In this document: in pieces, positions 1 through 9,230 of the stretch | Position numbering within the stretch: the stretch's first letter is position 1 | Layout: the number at the start of each line of letters is the position of its first letter | IMG/VR virus record: IMGVR_UViG_2740892218_000012 | DNA: 9,230 nucleotides | Strand: one strand, 5' to 3' | Source: a virus | Taxonomy: Duplodnaviria; Heunggongvirae; Uroviricota; Caudoviricetes | Position numbers and translations under genes: made by a program | The notes under the pieces: generated by a model | Told to the model about the DNA's origin: nothing | Databases searched by the model: none | What the model saw: the letters and a program-made list of their open reading frames with translations, nothing else

Positions 1-113
1 TTTCAGTTCCCACAGCTCATTCAGTACCTCTTCACGACTGATATCAAGTCGCGCAGCAAGTTCTATGGACGTGGCCTTTCCCATCGCTTTCAGTGCGTCA
101 AAAACAGTCTCCA
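1..113 (-). CDS. Hypothetical phage protein, N-terminal fragment (gene continues beyond left edge)
   Basis: Minus-strand ATG at 113..111 preceded by GGGAGG (plus 123..128) with 9-nt spacer; reads [38 protein letters not shown] to the window edge. Starts 24 nt after the stop of the DnaC-like gene, so likely co-transcribed. Confidence 0.4.
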
Positions 114-136
114 TTAAAATTTCCTCCCGGTAAAAA

Positions 137-883
137 TCACTTCGTGATTCCTGGCTGGACGACATTCGGGCGCCAGCTTTCCCAGTTAAAATTAACCCAT
201 CGACCGCCGTTCATGGTCATGCGATCCATAACCCTCTCACCGAGCAACGTTTTCATGGCCTCATAGTTCAGGTTTGTCAGCATCCCCATACTGCGCATCG
301 ATGCTGTCCGGCGATCAACAATCTGATGCAGCACCACCTGCTCGTTTTTCGTCTCACGCTGAATGCCAATTTCATCAAGAACCAGCAGATCCACTTCGCA
401 CAGTTCCCGCAAAAATTTTTCGCCTGACTGCCCGTCGTCATAGCTGGCGTGCAGGGCACTCATAACATCAGCCACAGTAACCACTATCACTGTCTGGCCG
501 TCTTTCAGCAGGCGATTCCCGATAGCCGCCGCCAGATGGTTTTTTCCGGTACCAGGTTTTCCGCTGAACGCGAAATTTGTGCATCCGGTCATCAGTTCAT
601 CAGCGATGGATTTCGCCTGACTTAACGCGTATCGCTGGCCGTCGTTCTGTACATGGTAATTCGCAAACGAGCATTTACGGTGCAACGGCTGGATGCCTGA
701 GCGATTCAGAATTTTTTCCACCCGCAACTGGCGATTCAGGCGGTTGATCTCCTCGCTACGCTTCTGGCCTTCAGCAAGTTGCCACTCGCGCCACTCCGCT
801 ACCGTTCTGAATGGGGCGGTTACATGTGGCGGGGTCAGTCTGCGGATACGTTCCAGAACGCCGCCTGTCGCAATATTTTTCAT
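137..883 (-). CDS. ydaV: DnaC-like AAA+ helicase loader (phage replication protein P analogue; YdaV-like)
   Basis: 248-aa ORF with Walker [16 protein letters not shown] and Walker B LLVLDEIG typical of the DnaC/IstB ATPase family. Sits immediately downstream of the initiator-like gene, as in lambdoid O-P modules. Size matches Rac YdaV (about 246 aa, from memory). Confidence 0.85.
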
Positions 884-889
884 GGTTCG

Positions 890-1402
890 TTACCCCCTGA
901 ACCCCGGAGGAATTTCGGTGTCCGGTTCAGAAATATGATTCACACAACGCTGTACAGGTGAACGCCCCAGGCGGATGACCAGTTCGTCCCATTTTTCGCG
1001 GAGCTTTGACGGGCTCATGATGTTTTTTACCCAGAATGGATCCCGCTGTACCCGCCCAAACATTTCGCAAATTTGTCTGTGAGTTCTGCCATCCAGCATC
1101 CGCATTGTGCGCACGTCATTGGCCCACGCGGTCCAGTTTGGTTCTTTCGGTCGCGTGATCTCGCCATCATCGCTGGCCGCCTGCTCGTAAAGACTCACGA
1201 TTCGTCCCCAGATCCACTGTGCGCACGCCAAATCTTCCTGACTTCCCCACTGGCGTTTTTTCGCACTGAACACAACCACGTCAGGGTGTCGGGTTAAAAA
1301 ATCCTGTTCAGCCGTCTGCGGGTCCGGTTGCGAAGCGTCCGGACAAGAAGATCTTTTATCTGACGGATCAGATTTTAATACTGACGGATCGGGGTCAATC
1401 AT
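890..1402 (-). CDS. Replication initiator (O/YdaU-like), C-terminal segment; this frame is open upstream to 1549 and appears frameshifted relative to the N-terminal segment 1495..1725
   Basis: 170-aa ORF from the first ATG. In the same frame, codons upstream of 1402 stay open to 1549 and encode a periodic peptide (NDPLTVDPSNIDPSTVDPSNFDGSTVD) templated by the iterons. Stop is 7 nt before the DnaC-like start. Confidence 0.6.
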   Translation of the reverse strand: MIDPDPSVLKSDPSDKRSSCPDASQPDPQTAEQDFLTRHPDVVVFSAKKRQWGSQEDLACAQWIWGRIVSLYEQAASDDGEITRPKEPNWTAWANDVRTMRMLDGRTHRQICEMFGRVQRDPFWVKNIMSPSKLREKWDELVIRLGRSPVQRCVNHISEPDTEIPPGFRG

Positions 1403-1434
1403 CGCCCCCCTAACCGACCGTTTTTTATCAACGG

Positions 1435-1506
1435 TTGATCCATCAAAATTTGACGGGTCAACCGTTGAGGGGTCAATATTTGACGGGTCAACCGTTAACG
1501 GGTCAT
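1435..1506. repeat. Iteron array, putative phage replication origin: five 12-bp near-palindromes TTGAYNNRTCAA at exact 15-bp phasing
   Basis: Units at 1435 (ttgatccatcaa), 1450 (ttgacgggtcaa), 1465 (ttgaggggtcaa), 1480 (ttgacgggtcaa) and 1495 (ttaacgggtcat, degenerate). More degenerate copies (tgacggatc) at 1361 and 1382. The array lies inside the initiator coding region, as lambda ori lies inside gene O. Confidence 0.6.
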
Positions 1507-1725
1507 TTTTTGCCGGGCTAATTTTTCTTTTCGGTTTATATGAGCCGCTTTAACCGTTGATTCACTCTTTGCCCCAATCTGACGACGAATGGTCTCTACT
1601 GCAGGCCATGACACACCTTCATCATTGCTGTAGTCTGCAAGACGAGCCATCACTGCCACCCTGGATAAGATCATGCCGGTGAAGGCACACCCTTCCCAGA
1701 CAAGACCATGAAGCTTGCTGCTCAT
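1495..1725 (-). CDS. Replication initiator (O/YdaU-like), N-terminal helix-turn-helix segment, ending at TAA just after an A6 run
   Basis: 76-aa ORF with a winged-helix-like segment (LSRVAVMARLADYSNDEGVSWPAVETIRRQIG). SD-like GGGG 6 nt upstream of the ATG at 1725. C-terminal codons are CAA AAA ATG ACC CGT TAA on the minus strand; one extra A would fuse it to the 890..1402 frame. Confidence 0.55.
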   Translation of the reverse strand: MSSKLHGLVWEGCAFTGMILSRVAVMARLADYSNDEGVSWPAVETIRRQIGAKSESTVKAAHINRKEKLARQKMTR

Positions 1726-1748
1726 AAAAAACCCCGAACACCGTGCTT

Positions 1749-2174
1749 TTAGTGCATCACCACGGCATTTCCTGCCGGGCCACCGCGATTAATCTGGTTG
1801 AAACCAGCAATTGCCACCGCAATAAAATCATCTGCATCCCTCACCAGCCGCTCCCGCGTCTCCAGCAGCTCCCGAAAATAGGCTGAACTGTGACTGCGCA
1901 TTCGGGCCACCAGCAGAGGCGGCATTGCCTTTTCGATCGCAGGTAACAACGCCTGAATTTTTTCAACCGCATCAGGAGTGTCTTTCTCTACCCAGCGGAA
2001 AATTTTCTGGGTATTGCGAGCCAGGGCTTCCGGATGGCTGTTGTCGTACAGTTCAGGAAACGTCATACCCAGTTCGAAATACGCTTTGGTAATTTTCGCA
2101 GTCGGTACTTTTTCTCCATCCGGATGCGCCCAGGCATTCATCGCCATGCGGATGTGTTCATGCTTGATTTTCAT
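1749..2174 (-). CDS. ydaT: YdaT-like protein (reported as a toxin and as a CII-like regulator in Rac-type prophages)
   Basis: 141-aa ORF directly downstream of the Cro-like gene, with AAGAGG SD 8 nt upstream of the ATG. Size and position match Rac ydaT (140 aa). Recognised from memory of the family, not by search. Confidence 0.65.
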   Translation of the reverse strand: MKIKHEHIRMAMNAWAHPDGEKVPTAKITKAYFELGMTFPELYDNSHPEALARNTQKIFRWVEKDTPDAVEKIQALLPAIEKAMPPLLVARMRSHSSAYFRELLETRERLVRDADDFIAVAIAGFNQINRGGPAGNAVVMH

Positions 2175-2196
2175 GAATCATTTGCCTCTTGATGTT

Positions 2197-2493
2197 TCAG
2201 GTATGATCAAATGAGGATTTGTTACTGTCATTTAGTTGCTTCACTGACATATTCTGCGAATAACATGCCGAACGTCGTAAATATGACCAGTCAATATCAG
2301 GACGAAGTTCTTCGCACAGAACGTCACCTCTTGTTGCACGTTCAATTGCTGGACATCTCTCTGCAGGCAATTGACGTACCCCTTTGATCCATTGATTTAC
2401 GCTTGGAGGTGATACACCTAAAAGCCTAGCCATTGCTGATTGCCCACCGACAACAGCACAAGCTCGCTTGAATGAATAGTTCTCTTTTTTCAT
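2197..2493 (-). CDS. ydaS: Cro-type HTH regulator (YdaS-like)
   Basis: 98-aa ORF divergent from the repressor gene. HTH segment QSAMARLLGVSPPSVNQWIKG. GGAG SD 8 nt upstream of the ATG. Size matches Rac YdaS (98 aa). Confidence 0.7.
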   Translation of the reverse strand: MKKENYSFKRACAVVGGQSAMARLLGVSPPSVNQWIKGVRQLPAERCPAIERATRGDVLCEELRPDIDWSYLRRSACYSQNMSVKQLNDSNKSSFDHT

Positions 2494-2519
2494 CGAATGA
2501 ACTCCAAAAACACACAGAG

Positions 2520-2589
2520 ATATTAGGCGACGCCTAATACTAATGTCAATAGGCTATGCCTAATGCAGTAAGAATAGGGATTGCCTAAT
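2520..2589. promoter_or_regulatory. OR-like operator cluster (three 17-bp palindromes ATTAGGC-N3-GCCTAAT) overlapping a minus-strand promoter for the cro-like gene
   Basis: O1 2522..2538 attaggcgacgcctaat (perfect; extends to a 19-bp perfect palindrome 2521..2539). O2 2548..2564 aataggctatgcctaat. O3 2573..2589 aatagggattgcctaat. Starts are 26 and 25 bp apart. Minus-strand promoter: -35 TTGACA (plus 2544..2549), 18-bp spacer, -10 TAATAT (plus 2520..2525), overlapping O1. Confidence 0.6.
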
Positions 2590-2616
2590 ACAATGAGCAT
2601 AGGAGAATATTAAGCA

Positions 2617-3093
2617 ATGCTTAGTGGTAAAGACTTAGGCCGAGCAATAGAGCAGGCCATTAACAAAAAAATCGCATCGGGATCCGTCAAATCAAAGGCG
2701 GAGGTCGCTCGCCACTTCAAAGTCCAACCACCATCAATCTATGACTGGATTAAGAAAGGCTCCATAAGTAAAGATAAACTTCCAGAATTATGGCGTTTCT
2801 TTTCTGATGTTGTTGGTCCAGAGCATTGGGGGCTTAACGAATACCCCATACCAACCCCCACCAACTCAGATACAAAAAGTGAACTTTTAGACATAAACAA
2901 CCTTTATCAGGCAGCCTCTGATGAAATAAGAGCGATTGTAGCTTTCCTGTTATCAGGAAATGCTACAGAACCAGACTGGGTTGACCACGATGTTCGCGCC
3001 TACATAGCAGCGATGGAAATGAAAGTTGGTAAGTATCTGAAAGTTCTAGAATCTGAACGGAAAAGCCAGAACATCACAAAAACTGGAACTTAA
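2617..3093 (+). CDS. racR: Prophage repressor (RacR-like, CI analogue)
   Basis: 158-aa ORF between the two operator clusters, divergent from the cro-like gene. HTH segment SKAEVARHFKVQPPSIYDWIKKG. AGGAG SD 11 nt upstream of the ATG. Size equals Rac RacR (158 aa). Confidence 0.75.
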   Translation: MLSGKDLGRAIEQAINKKIASGSVKSKAEVARHFKVQPPSIYDWIKKGSISKDKLPELWRFFSDVVGPEHWGLNEYPIPTPTNSDTKSELLDINNLYQAASDEIRAIVAFLLSGNATEPDWVDHDVRAYIAAMEMKVGKYLKVLESERKSQNITKTGT

Positions 3094-3188
3094 ACTTATA
3101 TGGTCTGACGGAAAACTCCTGGATTCCGTTATTTAATCCCTCCCATCACTTTTTTCATTCGCATCACCTATTGGGTTACGCCCAGAAC

Positions 3189-3232
3189 ATTAGGCAAAGC
3201 CTATTGACAATCAATTAGGCATTACCTATAGT
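3189..3232 (+). promoter_or_regulatory. pL-like sigma70 promoter (TTGACA-17-TATAGT) overlapped by two operator palindromes (OL-like)
   Basis: -35 TTGACA at 3204..3209, exact 17-bp spacer, -10 TATAGT at 3227..3232. Operators: 3189..3205 attaggcaaagcctatt and 3214..3230 attaggcattacctata, same half-site as the OR sites, 25-bp phasing, covering the -35 and -10. Confidence 0.6.
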
Positions 3233-3409
3233 TCCAGCATGCCACCCACCCCGCCCCACAGCACGCAGGGCAATACTTCGAGTTACCAGGCAGTGGTCAG
3301 GGGTTAAGTAGCCAGCCCGAGGCGTAAGAACATGACGGCAGGGTTCAACTTTAACTATGCAGCAGGTTTTTGTTCCGCTACCCCGGCGTTAAGGGGAAAT
3401 GAGGTCAGC

Positions 3410-3562
3410 ATGGATACTATCGATCTTGGCAACAACGAATCTCTGGTGTACGGCGTGTTTCCCAACCAGGACGGCACGTTCACCGCGATGACGTATACCA
3501 AAAGTAAAACGTTTAAAACCGAAGCTGGCGCGCATCGCTGGTTAGCAAGAAACTCTGACTGA
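3410..3562 (+). CDS. ydaF: Small phage protein (YdaF-like, DUF1391-type), 50 aa; in-frame alternative start at 3332
   Basis: GAGG at 3401..3404, 5 nt upstream of the ATG at 3410; reads MDTIDLGNNESLVYGVFPNQDGTFTAMTYTKSKTFKTEAGAHRWLARNSD. First gene after the pL-like promoter. The track ORF 3332..3562 is the same frame extended to an upstream ATG with a weaker RBS. Confidence 0.5.
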   Translation: MDTIDLGNNESLVYGVFPNQDGTFTAMTYTKSKTFKTEAGAHRWLARNSD

Positions 3563-3573
3563 TGAGGTTGACG

Positions 3574-4212
3574 ATGGAATTTAAAGATTTACCTACTTCA
3601 ATCCAGGAGATTGCAGCACACACACTTCGTCATCGTCTGAACGAACTTGCATTGGAATCGGTAACGAAAAAAGACACTGATAATATGGCTCGTAATGTGC
3701 GCGATGCGTTTACCGGATTGTATTTCTGTGCGTCTGTAAATAAACACGACTCAGAGAGTGTGGCAAATAAAATTGCAGAAACGACAGCGCAAAACATCAA
3801 TACGAAACCAACGGAAGAAGAAATTGATCAGTTTGCTCATGATGCTGGTTTAAAAAACAAGAAAGAAAAATCGCCATATGCGGGGAACATGTTTGTTTAT
3901 GACAATCTCATCAGAATTCGTGGCGAAATTCCGGCGGAATACCTGGCAAGAGTCCATCAGGCATTGCTTAAAAATCTGGAAACAGAATTATTTGATGGCA
4001 ACACTAACGGTTTCTTCATGGTATCAGGCCTTGAGAAAGACTGGGATGCAGAAAAACGCTGGAATGTTGCTACATGGTTATTCAGTAACAGAGCCGCTGC
4101 TCTGGAAGCTTCGGCATGTATTTGCGGCCTGTTCTTAACAGACCACAAATATAATCTGGATGTGTACAGTTATATTTACGCTGAACACGGTCCGCTCTGG
4201 ATTGACTGGTAA
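3574..4212 (+). CDS. Hypothetical protein, 212 aa, no recognisable motif (accessory cargo)
   Basis: GAGG at 3564..3567, 6 nt upstream of the ATG at 3574 (the track ORF starts at the in-frame ATG at 3562, overlapping the upstream stop as TGATG). Long uninterrupted ORF with ordinary amino-acid composition, visibly AT-richer than neighbours. I could not assign it to any family from sequence alone. Confidence 0.6.
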   Translation: MEFKDLPTSIQEIAAHTLRHRLNELALESVTKKDTDNMARNVRDAFTGLYFCASVNKHDSESVANKIAETTAQNINTKPTEEEIDQFAHDAGLKNKKEKSPYAGNMFVYDNLIRIRGEIPAEYLARVHQALLKNLETELFDGNTNGFFMVSGLEKDWDAEKRWNVATWLFSNRAAALEASACICGLFLTDHKYNLDVYSYIYAEHGPLWIDW

Positions 4213-4422
4213 TTATAAGGAAACACCAGCAGGGCCGCGGCGACCAACAGAACGATTAAAATCAATAATGCCATTATAAAGGACATTATTTAATTTATCG
4301 TCGAATGCTGATTCTGTGAGCCTCAACTCTGAATGAGTTTTTAATAACCCTGATTGCCTGAGTTGATTTACTAGGCATTCAATCTGTTTTTCAATAAGCG
4401 GATTTCTTTTTTTGTTTGGCAT
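4213..4422 (-). CDS. Hypothetical small protein, 69 aa (73 aa if the upstream ATG at 4434 is used), convergent with the 212-aa ORF
   Basis: Minus-strand ATG at 4422..4420 preceded by GGAGG (plus 4428..4432, 5-nt spacer). Stop (plus TTA 4213..4215) abuts the TAA stop of the plus-strand gene (4210..4212). Lies in AT-rich DNA. No convincing promoter found, so confidence is limited. Confidence 0.4.
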   Translation of the reverse strand: MPNKKRNPLIEKQIECLVNQLRQSGLLKTHSELRLTESAFDDKLNNVLYNGIIDFNRSVGRRGPAGVSL

Positions 4423-4758
4423 TTTATCCTCCATTGAGGTTCTGGGTTAAAAATGGAGACCAACACGCTGTCACGTGTGGTCGTGCGCCGGACACGGATA
4501 AGAATCCGGTACTGACAGTTTACTGAAAGGATATATCCCTGAAAAGCCAGGGCATAACGCGAAAGCACACGGCGAAATTGGTCTCTCTGTACGGTGTCGT
4601 TAAATTTAATTCGACCGTGCGCTTCCGGTTGTGGCACTCCGCGAAATGGCGCGGCGGTAAGTATGGCGGGGTTATTCCTTCCCCGTTGAGGACACCGGGT
4701 TGTCAGGTTGACCATACGCTTAAGTGACAACCCCGCTACAACGCCCTCTGTTATCAAT

Positions 4759-4816
4759 TTTCTGGTGGCGTTTGGCGGTATCAGTTTTACTCCGTGACTG
4801 CTCTGCCGCCCTTTTT
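4759..4816 (+). ncRNA. dicF: DicF-like small RNA with intrinsic terminator (cell-division-inhibiting sRNA family of lambdoid prophages)
   Basis: Sequence tttctggtggcgtttggcggtatcagttttactccgtgactgctctgccgccc followed by TTTTT closely matches my recollection of E. coli DicF (UUUCUGGUGACGUUUGGCGG...CUGCCGCCC). It lies in an ORF-free stretch of the pL-like operon, upstream of a kil-type gene. Confidence 0.6.
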
Positions 4817-4990
4817 AAAGTGAATTTTGTGATGCGGTGAATGCGGCTAAGCGCACGCGGAACAGTTAAAACCAAAAACAGTGTTATGGGTGGATTCTCT
4901 GTATCCGGCGTTAATTGTTAACTGGTTAACGTCACCTGGAGGCACCAGGCACCGCATCAACAAAGTTCATTTGTAAAAATGGAGATAATT

Positions 4991-5212
4991 ATGATTGCTC
5001 ATCACTTCGGAACTGATGAGATTCCTCGTCAGTGCGTGACTCCCGGTGATTATGTTATTCATAAAGGAAGAACATATATTGCTTCGGTAAACAACATTAA
5101 AAAACAACGGCTCTATATTCGTGATTTTTCCACACAACACTGTATTAAGGAAACCATGATTAAAGTCTTCCTTGGTCGTGATGGTTTACCTGTAAAAGCA
5201 GAGTCATGGTGA
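4991..5212 (+). CDS. kilR: Kil-type small protein (KilR-like host killing/cell-division inhibitor), 73 aa
   Basis: GGAG at 4981..4984, 6 nt upstream of the ATG at 4991 (the track ORF starts 4 codons earlier at 4979, with no SD). Product [21 protein letters not shown]...[12 protein letters not shown]. Size equals Rac KilR (73 aa), and position (between sieB-slot cargo and the exonuclease) matches. Confidence 0.6.
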
Positions 5213-5335
5213 ACAGTAATAAAATAACTGCCACAATACGACATTCAGCTTAATGAATACATCAGATTTGATTCTTATATGCCAGCAATGGCAGGGATTT
5301 GTTCATCCTTAAATCTGTCATGAGGTTAAAACAAA

Positions 5336-7807
5336 ATGAGTAAAGTCTTTATTTGCGCCGCCATTCCGGACGAACAGGCAATAAAGGAAGAAGGTGCAAT
5401 TGCTGTAGCCACTGCCATTGAAGCCGGTGACGAACGCCGCGCCCGTGCCAAATTTACCTGGCAATTCCTGGAGCAATATCCGGCTGCTCAGGACTGCGCT
5501 TATAAATTTCTTGTCTGCGAGGATAAACCCGGCATGCCCCGCCCTGCTATCGACTCCTGGGATACCGAATATATGCAGGAAAACCGCTGGGATGAGGAAT
5601 CCGCTTCCTTTATTCCGGTCGAACCAGAATCCGATCCGATGAACGTCAATTTTGACAAGCTGTCCCTTGAAGTACAGAACGCGGTCCTGGTTAAGTTCGG
5701 TACATGTGAAAACATCACCGTTGATATGGTGATTAGTGCTCAGGAATTACTGCAGGAGGACATGGCAACATTCGACGGGCATATCGTTGAGGCATTGATG
5801 AAAATGCCTGAAGTTAACGTCATGTATTCAGAGCTTAAGCTGCTCGCCATCGGGTGGGTTAAACATAAATGTAAGCCGGGTGCAAAATGGCCTGAGATCC
5901 AGACAGAATTACGCACCTGGAAAAAACGTCGCGAAGCCGAACGCAAAGAAACCGGGAAATACACGTCTGTTGTTGATCTTGCCCGCGCCAGAGTCAACCG
6001 GCAGAACACTGAAAATTCAGTAGCGAAAATCCCCCCAGCCACTGCCACCATTCGTCGCGAATACAAGCAGACATGGAAAACACTGGATGATGAACTGGCC
6101 TACGCTCTGTGGCCTGGTGACATTGATACCGGAAACATTGACGGCAGCATCCATCGCTGGGCAAAAAATGAAGTTATCGACAACGACCGCGAAGACTGGA
6201 AGCGTATCTCGGCATCAATGCGCAAACAGCCTGATGCCCTTCGCTACGACCGCCAGACTATTTTTGGCCTTGTCCGTGAACGTCCGATCGACATTCACAA
6301 AGCCCCTGTGGCACTGAACAAATACATTACTGAATACCTGACTACAAAGGGCGTGTTTGAAGATGAAGGAACAAATCAGAGCGCAACTGATACTCTCTCG
6401 TCGCCAGTACCAGAAACTGATGCAGTGGAAACGGCAATTCCGGACAACGAAAAAACCGAATGCAAAGTGGAAGTCGAACCATCTGTAGAGCGTGAAGGGC
6501 CGTTCTACTTCCTCTTCACCGACAAGGATGGCGAAAAATATGGTCGCGCAAACAAACTTTCTGGTCTGAATAAGGCGCTGACTGCAGGGGCTACTGAAAT
6601 CACGAAAGAAGAATATTTTGCCCGCAAAAACGGTACATACTCAGGTTCACAACAAAATACTGGTGCATCTGACACGACCGCACAACCAGAGCCGGTAAAA
6701 GTTACCGCTGAAGAAGTAAACAAAATTATGCAGGCAGCCAATATCAGCCAGCCTGACGCCGATAAGTTGCTTGCTGCCTCTCGCGGAGAATTTGTTGCAG
6801 GGATTAGCGACCCGAATGATCCGAAATGGGTGAAGGGGATTGAAACCCGCGACTCTGTAAACCAGAACCAGCAAGAATCGGAACAGAACGACCAGAAAAC
6901 GGAACAAAACAGCCCAAATGCGCAACAAAACGAGCCAGAAACGAAACAGGTTGAACCAGTAGCGCAACAGGAGCCGGAAAAAGCCTGCACCGCCTGCGGT
7001 CAGACCGGCGGCGGTAGCTGCCCTGATTGTGGTGCGGTGATGGGCGACGCAACATACCAGGAAATATTCGATGAAGAGAATCAGCCTGAAGTTCAGGAAA
7101 ATGATCCGGAGGAAATGGAAGGCACTGCGCATCAGCACAAGGAGAACACTGGCGGCAATCAGCATCATGCCAGCGATAGTGAAACTGGCGAGGCGTCAGA
7201 TCCCTTAATTAAGGCGAACGGTCATCATAATCTCACATCCACCAGCAGAGCGGGGATTCATCTGATGATCGACCTTGAAACCATGGGAAAAAATCCTGAT
7301 GCCCCGATTATCTCAATAGGTGCAATATTTTTCGATCCGCAAACCGGAGATATGGGACCGGAATTTAGTAAGACTGTCGATCTGGAAACTGCTGGCGGAG
7401 TCATTGATCGGGACACCATTAAATGGTGGCTTAAGCAATCACGCGAAGCGCAATCTGCCATTATGACCGATGAAATCCCGTTAGATGATGCACTGTTACA
7501 ATTGCGGGAATTTATCGACGAAAACTCCGGTGAATTTTTTGTTCAGGTCTGGGGAAATGGAGCAAACTTCGACAACACGATTTTGCGCCGTTCATACGAA
7601 CGGCAGGGGATCCCCTGCCCGTGGCGTTACTACAACGATCGCGATATACGCACAATCGTTGAGCTGGGGAAAGCCATAGACTTCGATGCCAGAACTGCTA
7701 TCCCATTCGAAGGTGAGCGCCATAATGCACTTGATGACGCTCGTTACCAGGCAAAATACGTTTCAGCTATCTGGCAAAAACTGATCCCGAGTCAGGCTGA
7801 TTTTTAA
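5336..7807 (+). CDS. Large prophage exonuclease, 823 aa: N-terminal region of unknown function, acidic Q/E/N-rich linker, CxxC-x7-CxxC zinc-ribbon motif, C-terminal DnaQ-like DEDDh 3'-5' exonuclease domain
   Basis: C-terminal motifs MIDLETMG (Exo I, DxE), WGNGANFDNTIL (Exo II) and HNALDDARY (Exo III, H-x4-D) are diagnostic of the DEDDh fold. CTACGQTGGGSCPDCG is encoded at about 6986..7030. Occupies the exo/recE slot of the pL operon; such genes are often auto-annotated exodeoxyribonuclease VIII. Confidence 0.85.
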   Translation: MSKVFICAAIPDEQAIKEEGAIAVATAIEAGDERRARAKFTWQFLEQYPAAQDCAYKFLVCEDKPGMPRPAIDSWDTEYMQENRWDEESASFIPVEPESDPMNVNFDKLSLEVQNAVLVKFGTCENITVDMVISAQELLQEDMATFDGHIVEALMKMPEVNVMYSELKLLAIGWVKHKCKPGAKWPEIQTELRTWKKRREAERKETGKYTSVVDLARARVNRQNTENSVAKIPPATATIRREYKQTWKTLDDELAYALWPGDIDTGNIDGSIHRWAKNEVIDNDREDWKRISASMRKQPDALRYDRQTIFGLVRERPIDIHKAPVALNKYITEYLTTKGVFEDEGTNQSATDTLSSPVPETDAVETAIPDNEKTECKVEVEPSVEREGPFYFLFTDKDGEKYGRANKLSGLNKALTAGATEITKEEYFARKNGTYSGSQQNTGASDTTAQPEPVKVTAEEVNKIMQAANISQPDADKLLAASRGEFVAGISDPNDPKWVKGIETRDSVNQNQQESEQNDQKTEQNSPNAQQNEPETKQVEPVAQQEPEKACTACGQTGGGSCPDCGAVMGDATYQEIFDEENQPEVQENDPEEMEGTAHQHKENTGGNQHHASDSETGEASDPLIKANGHHNLTSTSRAGIHLMIDLETMGKNPDAPIISIGAIFFDPQTGDMGPEFSKTVDLETAGGVIDRDTIKWWLKQSREAQSAIMTDEIPLDDALLQLREFIDENSGEFFVQVWGNGANFDNTILRRSYERQGIPCPWRYYNDRDIRTIVELGKAIDFDARTAIPFEGERHNALDDARYQAKYVSAIWQKLIPSQADF

Positions 7808-7822
7808 TGTTCAACCCTAATT

Positions 7823-7848
7823 GCCGCTAACCGTATATAGTTAGCGGC
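7823..7848 (+). other. Perfect 9-bp inverted repeat with 8-nt loop between the exonuclease gene and xis (hairpin or protein-binding palindrome)
   Basis: gccgctaac (7823..7831), loop cgtatata, gttagcggc (7840..7848). No U-tract follows, so it is not a canonical intrinsic terminator. Confidence 0.35.
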
Positions 7849-7859
7849 GGTTATGAGAT

Positions 7860-8069
7860 ATGGCTATGAGCAGCTTATTTTTAACCGAAGATGAATTGCT
7901 AACATTAACGGGCTGCAAATATGCAAGCCACCAGCGAAAATGGTTAATGGAAAACGGGCTTCCGTTCTATACCAATCGTAGTGGCAAACCGATTGTCAGC
8001 CGGGATCTATTTACCTGCAATAAAACTTTACCACCACGCGAGGTAGAGCCGAATTTTGGTGCAATCTGA
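7860..8069 (+). CDS. Putative excisionase / recombination directionality factor
   Basis: 69-aa ORF immediately upstream of int, with its stop overlapping the int start (ATGA at 8066..8069), the classic xis-int arrangement. Assignment is by position and size only. Confidence 0.5.
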   Translation: MAMSSLFLTEDELLTLTGCKYASHQRKWLMENGLPFYTNRSGKPIVSRDLFTCNKTLPPREVEPNFGAI

Positions 8070-9094
8070 TGGGAAGACGAAGGAAAAATCCTGAACACGA
8101 AAAATTACCTCCAAATGTATACCCAAATAAATATAGTTATGTATGGAAACCAACATCCAGAGAATCTGTCACACTAACCGCCATCAAGGATGGTTTAGCT
8201 GCTTTATGGAAAAAGTATGAGGAAACTGTAAATAATCGCGATCGCGCAATGACATTCGGTCGCTTGTGGGAAAAATTCCTCGCCAGCGCCTATTACAGTG
8301 ACCTCAGTCCAAGAACACAAAAAGATTATCTGCAACATCAAAAAAAGTTGCTTGCCGTATTCGGTAAGGTGCCGGCAGATTCCATAAAACCAGAACACAT
8401 CCGTCGATACATGGACAAGAGAGGGGAACAGAGTAAAACGCAAGCCAACCATGAAAAAAGCAGTATGTCCCGCGTTTACAGTTGGGGGTATGAGCGAGGG
8501 TACGTGAAGGGTAACCCATGTGCAGGTGTAAGTAAATTCAAGGCCAAAAACCGCGAACGATATGTAACCGACAAAGAATACCAGGCAGTATTAAGTGTTG
8601 CACCTCTTCCTGTTTTTATCGCAATGGAAATTGCCTATCTGTGTGCAGCGAGGGTTTCCGATGTGTTATCACTGAAATGGGAGCAGATTGGAAACGACGG
8701 GATCTTTATCCAGCAAGGGAAAACAGGGAAAAAACAGATAAAAGCATGGAGTCCACGATTACAGGCGGCGATCGAAAAAGCAAAACAGTTACCAACATCT
8801 GCCTATGTAATCAGCAATCAATATGGCAACCGATATATGTACAAAGGTTTTAACGAAATGTGGGTAGAAGCAAGAAATCACGCAGGCAAAATTTCAGGTA
8901 TTTTAACCGACTTCACCTTTCATGATCTGAAGGCGAAAGGAATTTCAGACTATGAAGGAAGCAGCCGGGATAAGCAACTTTTCTCTGGTCACAAAACCGA
9001 AGGGCAAGTGCTAATCTATGACAGAAAGGTTAAAGTTTCACCAACACTTGATGTCCCGTTACCTGATAATATTCCAAGAAAATATTCCAAGTAA
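8069..9094 (+). CDS. Lambda-family tyrosine integrase, 341 aa
   Basis: N-terminus MGRRRKNPEHEKLPPNVY resembles the lambda Int arm-binding domain (MGRRRSHERRDLPPNLY). Catalytic-region motifs present: AARVSDV (Arg I), QGKTGKK (Lys), FHDLKAKG (His, with Lys where Arg II is expected), SGHKTEG (His), LIYDRK (Tyr). Adjacent to a tRNA 3' end. Confidence 0.9.
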   Translation: MGRRRKNPEHEKLPPNVYPNKYSYVWKPTSRESVTLTAIKDGLAALWKKYEETVNNRDRAMTFGRLWEKFLASAYYSDLSPRTQKDYLQHQKKLLAVFGKVPADSIKPEHIRRYMDKRGEQSKTQANHEKSSMSRVYSWGYERGYVKGNPCAGVSKFKAKNRERYVTDKEYQAVLSVAPLPVFIAMEIAYLCAARVSDVLSLKWEQIGNDGIFIQQGKTGKKQIKAWSPRLQAAIEKAKQLPTSAYVISNQYGNRYMYKGFNEMWVEARNHAGKISGILTDFTFHDLKAKGISDYEGSSRDKQLFSGHKTEGQVLIYDRKVKVSPTLDVPLPDNIPRKYSK

Positions 9095-9101
9095 TTCCAA
9101 G
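9071..9101 (+). repeat. Three direct repeats of ATTCCAAG at the int 3' end, candidate integrase arm-type (P'-like) binding sites
   Basis: attccaag at 9071..9078, 9084..9091 and 9094..9101, about 50-75 bp from the tRNA 3' end. Lambda P' arm sites are direct repeats in the equivalent position. Confidence 0.35.
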
Positions 9102-9146
9102 TGTGATTTTTGTCACTGACTTAATGATGTGTAAGTGATTGAATTT

Positions 9147-9230
9147 TGGCGGAGAGAGGGGGATTTGAACCCCCGGTGGAGTTGCCCCCACTCCGGTTTT
9201 CGAGACCGGTCCGTTCAGCCGCTCCGGCAT
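9147..9230 (-). tRNA. serU: tRNA-Ser (anticodon CGA), 3' 84 nt including the encoded CCA; the 5' 6 nt lie beyond the window edge
   Basis: Reverse complement of 9147..9230 reads ATGCCGGAGCGGCTGAACGGACCGGTCTCGAAAACCGGAGTGGGGGCAACTCCACCGGGGGTTCAAATCCCCCTCTCTCCGCCA. Anticodon stem CCGGT/ACCGG with loop CTCGAAA (anticodon CGA), long variable arm GTGGGG-GCAA-CTCCAC, T-arm GGGGG-TTCAAAT-CCCCC, acceptor 3' strand plus CCA. Confidence 0.85.

Follow-up and report, generated by a model that had tools for sequence, protein, structure and literature searches.

The locus studied here raises the question of what a large nuclease does in the recombination slot of a lambdoid prophage that lacks an annealase gene. 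The window we analysed is a stretch of 9,230 nucleotides (GCA_001514645.1, BBVI01000023.1, positions 1-9230). Its plus strand contains a genuine ORF of 823 amino acids with an ATG start (5336-7807; ORF list), which matches phrog_2082 'exonuclease' over its full length in PHROGs and carries the YdfE_N, YdfE_C and Rv2179c-like families in the precomputed Pfam annotation. Identical copies of the protein are encoded on 8 public contigs. A KilR-like division inhibitor is encoded directly upstream in the same operon (4979-5212, plus strand; phrog_294, E=2.6e-34; PF27398 KilR). As a sequence-only reading of this DNA had stated, the next gene is xis, which encodes a DUF4224 excisionase (7860-8069, plus strand; phrog_1266, E=3.4e-22; PF13986). 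It begins 52 nt past the exonuclease stop and is followed by the tyrosine integrase gene int at the end of the prophage (8069-9094, plus strand; phrog_1; PF00589), beyond which lies a tRNA fragment (9150-9230). The same reading had placed the nuclease gene in the recombination slot, and the gene indeed stands where Rac carries recE. The protein encoded by the ORF has a modular build and belongs to the early-left operon of a lambdoid E. coli prophage of the Rac/Qin type.

The C-terminal part of the protein (aa 641-823; 7256-7804, plus strand) is assigned to the DEDDh 3'-5' exonucleases of the DnaQ-like, Rv2179c/DexA type. The Pfam family Rv2179c-like (PF16473) matches aa 642-813 with E=7.3e-67 and 224.9 bits against a cut-off of 27, and the alignment spans profile positions 2-177 of 177. 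The three motifs are DLET at aa 646-649 (7271-7282), NFD at aa 744-746 (7565-7573) and HNALDDA at aa 796-802 (7721-7741). They supply the catalytic residues D646, E648, D746, H796 and D801; the Exo I, II and III residues (D646/E648, D746 and H796/D801) align with D7/E9, D119 and H186/D191 of T4 DexA. All three motifs are retained in seven family representatives, down to 58% identity, and the dN/dS of the domain is 0.18. The conserved motifs show a domain that is predicted to be catalytically intact. T4 DexA (8KEL; E=1.3e-6) was the sole solved relative in a PDB sequence search, in which only DexA chains were matched and the RecE nuclease chain was not among the matches. BLASTP against Rac RecE gave nothing significant past RecE residue 591. 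The earlier placement of this domain in the DEDDh fold, and not among the PD-(D/E)XK nucleases, is thus confirmed by the profile match, the three motifs and the similarity to DexA: Pfam assigns aa 642-813 to Rv2179c-like, and the alignment with RecE stops at residue 591 and leaves the C-terminus outside it.

The remainder of the protein is related to RecE and to ydfE. The sequence-only reading had left about 500 N-terminal residues unassigned, which does not hold: aa 262-625 are homologous to Rac RecE 278-591 (BLASTP), and aa 1-256 correspond to an intact ydfE. Within the RecE-homologous part, aa 470-625 (6743-7210, plus strand) are 71% identical to RecE 455-591, the zinc ribbon included. This tether consists, in order, of a conserved 'LLAASRGEFVxGISDPNDPKWVKGI' box, a Q/N/E-rich disordered stretch, the zinc ribbon and an acidic tail. 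The putative zinc ribbon is a four-cysteine CxxC-x7-CxxC motif, CTACGQTGGGSCPDC (aa 551-565; 6986-7030, plus strand), whose cysteines all align with those of ACNACGQTGGDNCPDC in Rac RecE and whose dN/dS is 0.14. The Q/N/E content of aa 481-600 is 33-40%, and aa 561-600 contain 30% D/E and zero K or R. The zinc ribbon and acidic linker described earlier are therefore present, but they are not an unexplained addition; together with some 360 residues that precede them, they are RecE's own non-catalytic region.

The RecE homology ends immediately before RecE GIYYGISNENYHA, which we take to be the start of the RecE nuclease domain, based on the 606-866 crystal construct. The PD-(D/E)XK 5'-3' nuclease of RecE occupies residues of about 600-866 (solved as 3H4R). 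The NCBIfam RecE model NF007259 was matched only at positions 241-603 of 877, with an equivalog score of 269.5 bits, far under the cut-off of 1269. Since aa 262-625 are RecE-homologous and aa 1-256 are of the ydfE type, the protein is almost certainly a RecE scaffold in which the PD-(D/E)XK 5'-3' nuclease has been exchanged for a T4 DexA-like 3'-5' exonuclease. As placed by the alignment, the swap point is exactly the boundary between the linker and the nuclease domain of RecE. The N-terminal part, or scaffold, of RecE itself has no known function (PMC11611040).

N-terminal to the tether, three domains can be delineated. Domain 1 (aa 1-206; 5336-5953, plus strand) is alpha/beta and helical and corresponds to YdfE_N. 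Domain 2 (aa 247-340; 6074-6355, plus strand) is helical, was identified from an AlphaFold2 (AF2) block with a pLDDT of 76-91 and from BLASTP against Rac RecE, and is weakly homologous to RecE 278-356 (26% identity; dN/dS 0.13). Domain 3 (aa 385-435; 6488-6640, plus strand) is a small beta-hairpin/helix module recognised from AF2, with a block pLDDT of 80-89 over aa 391-430, and from an 86-sequence alignment, in which G388, P389, F390, Y391, R404, A405, K407, G418, E421 and I422 are invariant across the family. Its dN/dS of 0.04 is the lowest among all segments. In general, dN/dS is 0.04-0.18 in the folded domains and 0.46-0.73 in the predicted disordered linkers. The mean pLDDT of a whole-protein single-sequence AlphaFold2 model was 34.6. 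Structure prediction, to which the sequence-only reading had looked for an assignment of the N-terminal region, thus delivered the two blocks described above, whereas fold comparison with the model of aa 1-470 gave no informative match.

The protein belongs to an abundant family. Two Pfam families, YdfE_N and YdfE_C, cover it and take their names from ydfE, and the ydfE product of the K-12 Qin prophage matches aa 1-256 with 86% identity. At a query coverage of 80% or more, the gene was found in 3531 of 5426 complete E. coli genomes, or about 65%. It is one of the most frequent prophage genes in E. coli, and the notion of a large lone nuclease as an oddity has to be abandoned. An initial homologue search had returned near-identical E. 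coli sequences only, most of them partial. Both N-terminal types, YdfE_N and RecE_N, are found with both nuclease types; among 80 DEDDh loci, 53 carry YdfE_N and 23 carry RecE_N.

Relatives with yet another head occur in prophages of Enterobacter, Klebsiella, Salmonella and Pantoea. These 'RecE-2'-like proteins are annotated as exodeoxyribonuclease VIII, have the same YdfE_N and YdfE_C scaffold with 26-47% identity to aa 1-470, and are encoded at the same operon position near KilR and int. Their C-terminal 250 residues are neither DEDDh nor PD-(D/E)XK. A Sipho_Gp157 gene lies downstream of them and, in Salmonella, a Gam-like gene lies upstream. For two divergent members the top Pfam match is PF04098 (Rad52_Rad22), below threshold in both cases, and from these two matches the third head on the scaffold is probably a Rad52-like annealase; PDB profile searches with alignments of the 'RecE-2'-like relatives did not recover Rad52. 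The interchangeability of nuclease heads and a probable annealase head suggests that the scaffold belongs in DNA recombination.

The sequence-only reading had also claimed that an annealase gene is absent between the pL-like promoter and int, and the absence of such a gene between the repressor and int was upheld by PHROGs and Pfam scans of the operon ORFs. No annealase family was matched by the scanned plus-strand ORFs of the early-left operon (158, 76, 216, 77, 69 and 341 aa) or by two minus-strand ORFs in the same stretch. Likewise, tblastn searches with RecT and Bet gave zero matches in the 80 DEDDh-type loci from IMG/VR. RecT, Bet, Exo or Gam occur in 0/80 of these loci, whereas RecT accompanies RecE in 80/80 RecE loci from the same source. 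We also considered the 216-aa ORF (3562-4212; phrog_2151) as a hidden annealase, which seems very unlikely: it matched no annealase family, evidence in its support was not found, the PDB search gave nothing significant (best E-value 0.71), and it occurs in only 30/80 DEDDh loci. The 823-aa protein is probably not part of a two-component exonuclease/annealase recombinase.

The window contains three Chi sites, all on the minus strand: GCTGGTGG at 7239-7246 inside the ORF, and two further sites at 1907-1914 and 7928-7935. Only 0.20 are expected, and 0/200 shuffles reach three. On the lambda map, the window's minus strand is the top strand, the orientation called active by Zheng et al. (PMC12315714). 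Dereplication leaves the DEDDh loci with 78 minus-strand and 2 plus-strand Chi sites (3.0 per 10 kb), and the RecE loci, of which only 8 are left, with 4 and 0 (0.53 per 10 kb). Correctly oriented Chi is thus about six times as frequent in DEDDh loci as in RecE loci, in a comparison among related E. coli prophages in which one Chi lies within the gene itself, so that any DEDDh locus keeping it scores at least one.

These features place the locus in a known group. DnaQ-like nucleases in lambdoid Rec modules were already described in 2025, when phage Tritos was made the prototype of nuclease-only, Chi-rich lambdoid recombination modules, which have a nuclease and 7-21 top-strand Chi sites and lack SAP and anti-RecBCD genes (Zheng et al., 2025, Genome Res; PMC12315714). 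Our protein shares 87% identity with gp27 of Tritos over the full length; both have 823 residues and the same gene layout. The window shows the gene content, the gp27 layout and the top-strand Chi of a Tritos-type nuclease-only Rec module, with the absence of SSB judged from PHROG and Pfam scans of the window ORFs. Full-length matches are also present in other phage genome records, and the family is already catalogued. The label in the Tritos record, 'exonuclease VIII, ds DNA exonuclease', misdescribes the catalytic domain.

In the literature searched, including the terms Rv2179c/prophage, PF16473 and YdfE, no functional study of the protein or its close relatives was found. On balance, the evidence favours the processing of DNA ends in connection with recombination. 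The reading that we tentatively favour is accessory DNA 3'-end processing in a phage relying on host RecBCD/RecA. Like T4 DexA, the DEDDh head would use two-metal-ion hydrolysis to strip nucleotides from free 3' ends, and the scaffold would bring it to the same site to which the RecE scaffold brings the 5'-3' nuclease. Since the module has no annealase and no RecBCD inhibitor and has correctly oriented Chi, strand exchange would be left to RecBCD/RecA. As an accessory processor, the exonuclease could trim 3' tails or flaps, or widen gaps, during recombination-dependent replication. Such a helper role beside RecBCD is not obvious, because 3'-5' exonucleases destroy 3' tails and in this way usually inhibit recombination that depends on RecA (Zheng et al., 2025; PMC12315714). 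In addition, Rv2179c, the founding member of PF16473, is described by Pfam as an exoribonuclease, so the substrate of the DEDDh head could be RNA.

A broader proposal, which we regard as speculative and rather unlikely as it stands, is that the YdfE/RecE N-terminal body is a general delivery platform that brings interchangeable DNA-processing heads to one cellular target, the DEDDh version representing a distinct recombination strategy that is independent of an annealase. The heads may be the 5'-3' PD-(D/E)XK exonuclease, the 3'-5' DEDDh exonuclease and the Rad52-like annealase, and recombination inside the conserved zinc-ribbon/acidic tether may have exchanged them. The target may be, for example, DNA ends, the replisome or RecBCD. 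If this were true, a phage 3'-5' exonuclease would cooperate with host RecBCD and Chi, and not replace or inhibit them.

The relationship to DexA also suggests a function in competition between phages. An HREX-type defence nuclease would selectively degrade the modified DNA of a superinfecting phage, for example T-even 5hmC DNA. The nearest characterised relatives are T4 DexA and the E. coli DexA homologue EcD; EcD breaks down T4 DNA and shields E. coli against this phage, and Escherichia is the genus richest in bacterial DexA homologues, with 38% of 3196 (PMC12153337). A prophage-borne gene that about 65% of complete E. coli genomes possess would fit such a function. However, EcD is a different protein. 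We rejected its identity with the 823-aa protein since the EcD primers encode a product starting with MIDTE... and ending with ...TIPETYD, whereas the sequence here is LMIDLETMG at the start of the domain and IPSQADF at its end. The EcD primer DNA matched two unrelated loci only in genome_contigs and viral_contigs, neither with the forward-primer sequence; given that no genuine locus was found, the EcD gene is probably codon-optimised. DexA D169, the proposed 5hmC reader (PMC12153337), lies in a 14-residue insertion that is missing from the domain here, and DexA W152, likewise proposed to act in 5hmC recognition, is replaced by Tyr766 in the alignment. The change of the tetramer-forming Asp90 to Ala that defines EcD is also absent: in an approximate alignment at ~30% identity, DexA S87 corresponds to Pro715 and D90 to Asp718. 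Furthermore, a plus-strand promoter-like site was not found in 4200-8100, PADLOC gave only a generic Cas-associated DEDDh match (E=1.5e-5), and the scaffold is common to a recombination nuclease and a probable annealase. We therefore consider a role in inter-phage defence unlikely.

A host-takeover or anti-defence function is quite unlikely. Early in the lytic cycle and independently of recombination, the nuclease would then attack the 3' ends of host nucleic acids, RNA or short (oligo)nucleotides that act as immune signals. The gene lies in the early operon beside the host-directed KilR and DicF, the DEDDh/Rv2179c-like family includes exoribonucleases according to its Pfam name, the oligoribonuclease Rexo2 is the closest structural homologue of DexA, and DexA also scavenges host DNA (PMC12153337). 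Nevertheless, positive evidence for takeover was not found, and degradation of small molecules needs no 640-aa RecE-type scaffold with a zinc ribbon. The slot of the domain can also hold a 5'-3' dsDNA exonuclease or a probable annealase, and the domain's strict association with genomes that are rich in Chi and lack an annealase speaks for DNA recombination.

It is very unlikely that the protein works with an unrecognised annealase, either the 216-aa ORF or a host protein, as a two-component recombinase of reversed resection polarity. No function is assigned to the 216-aa ORF, and an annealase domain seems to be present in cis in relatives that share the scaffold, which would link annealing activity evolutionarily to the scaffold. 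Against this stand the patchy occurrence of the 216-aa ORF and its lack of an annealase match, as described above. We also know of no described phage exonuclease/annealase pair that uses the 5' overhangs made by a 3'-5' exonuclease. Zheng et al. likewise found no annealase in Tritos-type phages (PMC12315714). Finally, a decaying, functionless remnant in a cryptic prophage is highly improbable: the O-like replication gene of this prophage copy has a 128-bp deletion and a frameshift, and the K-12 Qin copy is a pseudogene cut by IS2, but the ORF here is intact and matches the Tritos gene along its full length, as do other phage genome records, purifying selection acts on every folded domain (dN/dS 0.04-0.18), and the catalytic motifs are preserved across the family.

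Judging from its presence in about 65% of complete genomes, no other gene may fill the recombination slot of lambdoid prophages in E. coli as often as this one. Many phage records use the label 'exodeoxyribonuclease VIII' for it, which suggests an incorrect fold and polarity as well as a partner that is missing. Because the gene was never found with RecT, is associated with oriented Chi and shares its scaffold with a set of at least three alternative heads, we hypothesize that some lambdoid phages tune host recombination instead of replacing it. The hypothesis is open to testing in isolated phages, among them Tritos, Evi and mEp460, and it bears on why full-length RecE and its nuclease fragment differ in recombineering.

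Comparison with known systems summarizes these relationships. Rac RecE and the 823-aa protein are both large and are encoded at the same operon position, after kilR and before xis/int. They differ in the first about 260 residues (PF06630 Exonuc_VIII in RecE, YdfE_N here) and in the catalytic head (PD-(D/E)XK, 5'-3', in RecE; DEDDh, 3'-5', here), and RecE has a RecT partner whereas the 823-aa protein has none. T4 DexA, a 3'-5' exonuclease that acts on DNA and takes part in intron homing (PMC12153337), belongs to the same DEDDh subfamily, PF16473, with all five catalytic residues aligned but only about 29% identity to the domain. DexA (227 aa) and EcD have been expressed and studied as single-domain proteins, whereas the domain described here forms the C-terminal head on a scaffold, in a protein of 823 aa. 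IS2E interrupts the K-12 pseudogene ydfE (b1577) about 256 codons into the gene, and the nuclease head and the RecE-like tether are therefore gone from the K-12 copy; Qin and Tritos share the upstream genes dicF, dicB and ydfD. Tritos gp27 is of the same gene family as the 823-aa ORF, with essentially no difference between them: as in the window, gp27 is directly followed by xis and int, in a module from which annealase, SSB and anti-RecBCD genes are absent and in which Chi is present in the active orientation.

As judged by sequence comparison, the 823-residue protein encoded at 5336-7807 on the plus strand has a modular architecture, in which a scaffold related to YdfE and RecE is followed by a C-terminal DEDDh head. 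The motifs DLET (residues 646-649), NFD (744-746) and HNALDDA (796-802) are retained in seven family representatives at identities down to 58%. In a Pfam search, residues 642-813 span the whole Rv2179c-like profile (PF16473, E=7.3e-67). In contrast, the NCBIfam RecE equivalog was matched only in part (residues 217-626 against model positions 241-603 of 877; 269.5 bits, cut-off 1269). A PDB sequence search returned T4 DexA (8KEL, E=1.3e-6) as the sole solved relative and matched no RecE nuclease chain. Asp646, Glu648, Asp746, His796 and Asp801 align with Asp7, Glu9, Asp119, His186 and Asp191 of DexA, and the catalytic site is intact. The sequence-only reading, which had located the three motifs and assigned the domain to the DEDDh fold rather than the RecE-like PD-(D/E)XK fold, was accurate in its description and right to depart from the ‘RecE-like’ expectation.

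The N-terminal ~500 residues, which that reading could not assign, resolve as the RecE/YdfE scaffold. Residues 1-256 share 86% identity with what is encoded by ydfE, a K-12 Qin pseudogene interrupted by IS2E, and a newer Pfam release already defines YdfE_N (PF27430) and YdfE_C (PF27432) for the N-terminal parts. In BLASTP against K-12 Rac RecE, residues 262-625 aligned with RecE 278-591 (E=2e-60), with identities of ~25% over residues 262-469 and 71% over residues 470-625. The latter segment includes the putative zinc ribbon (CxxC-x7-CxxC, residues 551-565; ACNACGQTGGDNCPDC in RecE) and the acidic tail. Gln, Asn and Glu make up 33-40% of residues 481-600, and residues 561-600 are 30% acidic with no basic residue. 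The zinc ribbon and acidic linker singled out earlier are thus present, but both are ordinary in RecE. The RecE homology ends directly before RecE ‘GIYYGISNENYHA’, which we take to be the beginning of the RecE nuclease domain, and the ORF runs on into the DEDDh domain.

A structure model of residues 1-470 (86 homologues, pLDDT 76.7) predicts three folded units: an alpha/beta and helical unit (residues 1-206), a helical unit (247-340), and a unit of beta-hairpins and one helix (385-435) in which the alignment shows an invariant GPFY...RA.K...G..EI. The linkers between them were modelled with low confidence, and a fold comparison of the model gave no informative match. Relative to the homologous gene of phage Tritos, dN/dS is 0.04-0.18 for the folded units, zinc ribbon and DEDDh domain and 0.46-0.73 for the linkers. 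Every folded module is therefore under purifying selection.

Searching 1.84 billion cluster representatives yielded just 255 hits at E<0.001, indicating a narrow family. Among the 51 long representatives dissected, both N-termini (YdfE_N and the Rac type, PF06630) were found with both nuclease heads. Relatives from Enterobacter, Klebsiella, Kosakonia, Pantoea, Citrobacter, Salmonella and Erwinia carry the same scaffold (26-47% identity) with a different C-terminal 250 residues, the consensus of which contains KKSLTDAIKKALSxLGFSADVWLGLYD. Two divergent members of this third head have Rad52_Rad22 as their top Pfam match; the profile positions are those expected, but the scores, 17.7 and 14.7 bits, fall below the 20.3 threshold. 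PDB profile searches did not confirm Rad52, so this reading stays a lead. A Sipho_Gp157 gene comes after the third-head genes, which in Salmonella are preceded by a Gam-like gene. These proteins, nucleases by annotation, may instead be annealases fused to the scaffold. Those of 720-810 residues (P0271-P0387; for example L169:6001-8412 and L170:6001-8295) are annotated ‘exodeoxyribonuclease VIII’.

The window covers the immunity and early region of an E. coli lambdoid prophage of the Rac/Qin type and is identical to positions 1-9230 of BBVI01000023.1 (GCA_001514645.1). The minus strand carries DnaC-like, O-like, YdaT/cII-like and YdaS/Cro-like genes. The O-like initiator (HTH_36, about 890-1725), which has 320 residues in the related loci L003 and L004, is disrupted by a 128-bp deletion and frameshift (breakpoint near 1543) and split into ORFs at 890-1402 and 1495-1725. 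Although its exonuclease gene is intact, this copy of the prophage is probably defective in replication. On the plus strand are a repressor-like ORF (2617-3093), as in Rac racR in length and position, DUF1391 (3332-3562) and a 216-residue ORF (3562-4212, phrog_2151), on which a 73-residue minus-strand ORF (4213-4434, phrog_4274) converges. These two, with no assigned function, occupy the place of sieB and adjacent genes in Rac; of the IMG/VR loci, 30 of 80 with the DEDDh head contain the 216-residue ORF, versus 1 of 80 with the RecE head. The ORF-poor gap that follows holds a full-length DicF sRNA (4760-4811, plus strand; Rfam RF00039, 76.4 bits, gathering score 48). With the KilR-like gene (4979-5212, plus strand), DicF gives the operon two division inhibitors upstream of the exonuclease. 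No promoter-like site was found on the plus strand at 4200-8100, so the exonuclease gene is most probably part of the early-left operon, ahead of xis (7860-8069) and int (8069-9094), both on the plus strand. The 52-nt spacer between its stop codon and xis contains a perfect 9-bp inverted repeat, GCCGCTAAC-N11-GTTAGCGGC (about 7823-7851, plus strand). Without a T-run it does not qualify as a typical intrinsic terminator; the hairpin might serve in RNA processing or in regulation. Just beyond int, a minus-strand tRNA fragment (9150-9230; RF00005, 39.8 bits) is probably the attachment site; ARAGORN made no call because the window end truncates it.

No listed ORF of the window matched an annealase, SSB or Gam family in PHROGs or Pfam, which upholds the earlier remark that the operon lacks an annealase. 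The 80 DEDDh loci, with YdfE_N in 53 and the Rac-type N-terminus in 23, contain no RecT, Bet, lambda Exo, Gam or RecE nuclease, and RecT is present in all 80 loci with the RecE head. By these searches, the partner annealase is absent. The window has three Chi sites against 0.20 expected in 9.2 kb, at 1907-1914, 7239-7246 (inside the exonuclease ORF) and 7928-7935 (inside xis), all on the minus strand, which corresponds to the top strand of the lambda map. After dereplication, 32 DEDDh loci carry 78 minus-strand and 2 plus-strand sites (3.0 minus-strand sites per 10 kb) and 8 RecE loci carry 4 and 0 (0.53 per 10 kb), in a comparison drawn from related E. coli prophages and with one Chi falling within the exonuclease gene itself. 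The DEDDh head is associated with oriented Chi sites.

The DEDDh head would act as a 3'-5' exonuclease on DNA 3' ends, since DexA is its closest characterised relative, since a dsDNA exonuclease or a probable annealase can stand in its place, and since the gene occupies the recombination slot. The RecE nuclease fragment reportedly interacts with RecT. Head replacement would then remove the RecT docking site along with that fragment, which fits the distribution of RecT between the two sets of loci. Such phages could leave strand exchange to host RecBCD/RecA, with the DEDDh protein as an accessory processor of DNA ends. We tentatively favour this role, though at somewhat less than even odds; it is weakened by the fact that 3'-5' exonucleases usually work against RecA-dependent recombination (PMC12315714). 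An HREX-type defence nuclease (PMC12153337), plausible through homology, is unlikely: the E. coli DexA homologue EcD of that type is a separate protein from ours, the proposed 5hmC-reading Asp sits in an insertion that our protein lacks, and the operon is probably repressed in the lysogen. Host takeover or anti-defence, which the sequence-only reading had raised, is rather less likely still, and a partner annealase that escaped recognition is improbable. A dead remnant is the least credible, beside an intact catalytic site and modules under selection.

The lone large nuclease is no oddity. At ≥80% query coverage the gene is present in 3531 of 5426 complete E. coli genomes (median 2 copies per genome having any), and RefSeq names it ‘exonuclease’ or ‘3'-5' exonuclease’. 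Sequenced phages that carry it include Tritos, Evi, mEp460_ev081, HannyBb and PhiR42_1, as well as PPompW and Stx2a-converting phages. Many phage records, such as OV696610.1 (Tritos), ON470583.1 and PV340562.1, read ‘exodeoxyribonuclease VIII’ or ‘exonuclease VIII, ds DNA exonuclease’. The ‘exonuclease VIII’ label is a carry-over from the shared scaffold, wrong on catalytic fold and polarity. Zheng et al. (Genome Res 2025; PMC12315714) describe Tritos as the prototype of a type with a nuclease and without annealase, SSB or anti-RecBCD (4 of 314 phages, with 7-21 Chi sites on the top strand), and ‘RecE-2’ proteins without a nuclease fold; the gene arrangement is thus already catalogued. The remaining interest lies in the modular-scaffold picture drawn from comparison, in a family for which we found no experimental study of this protein in the literature. 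Tritos gp27 is 87% identical, also has 823 residues and is likewise followed by xis and int. Rac RecE has the zinc ribbon and acidic tail in common with our protein but differs in its nuclease head, which is DEDDh here.
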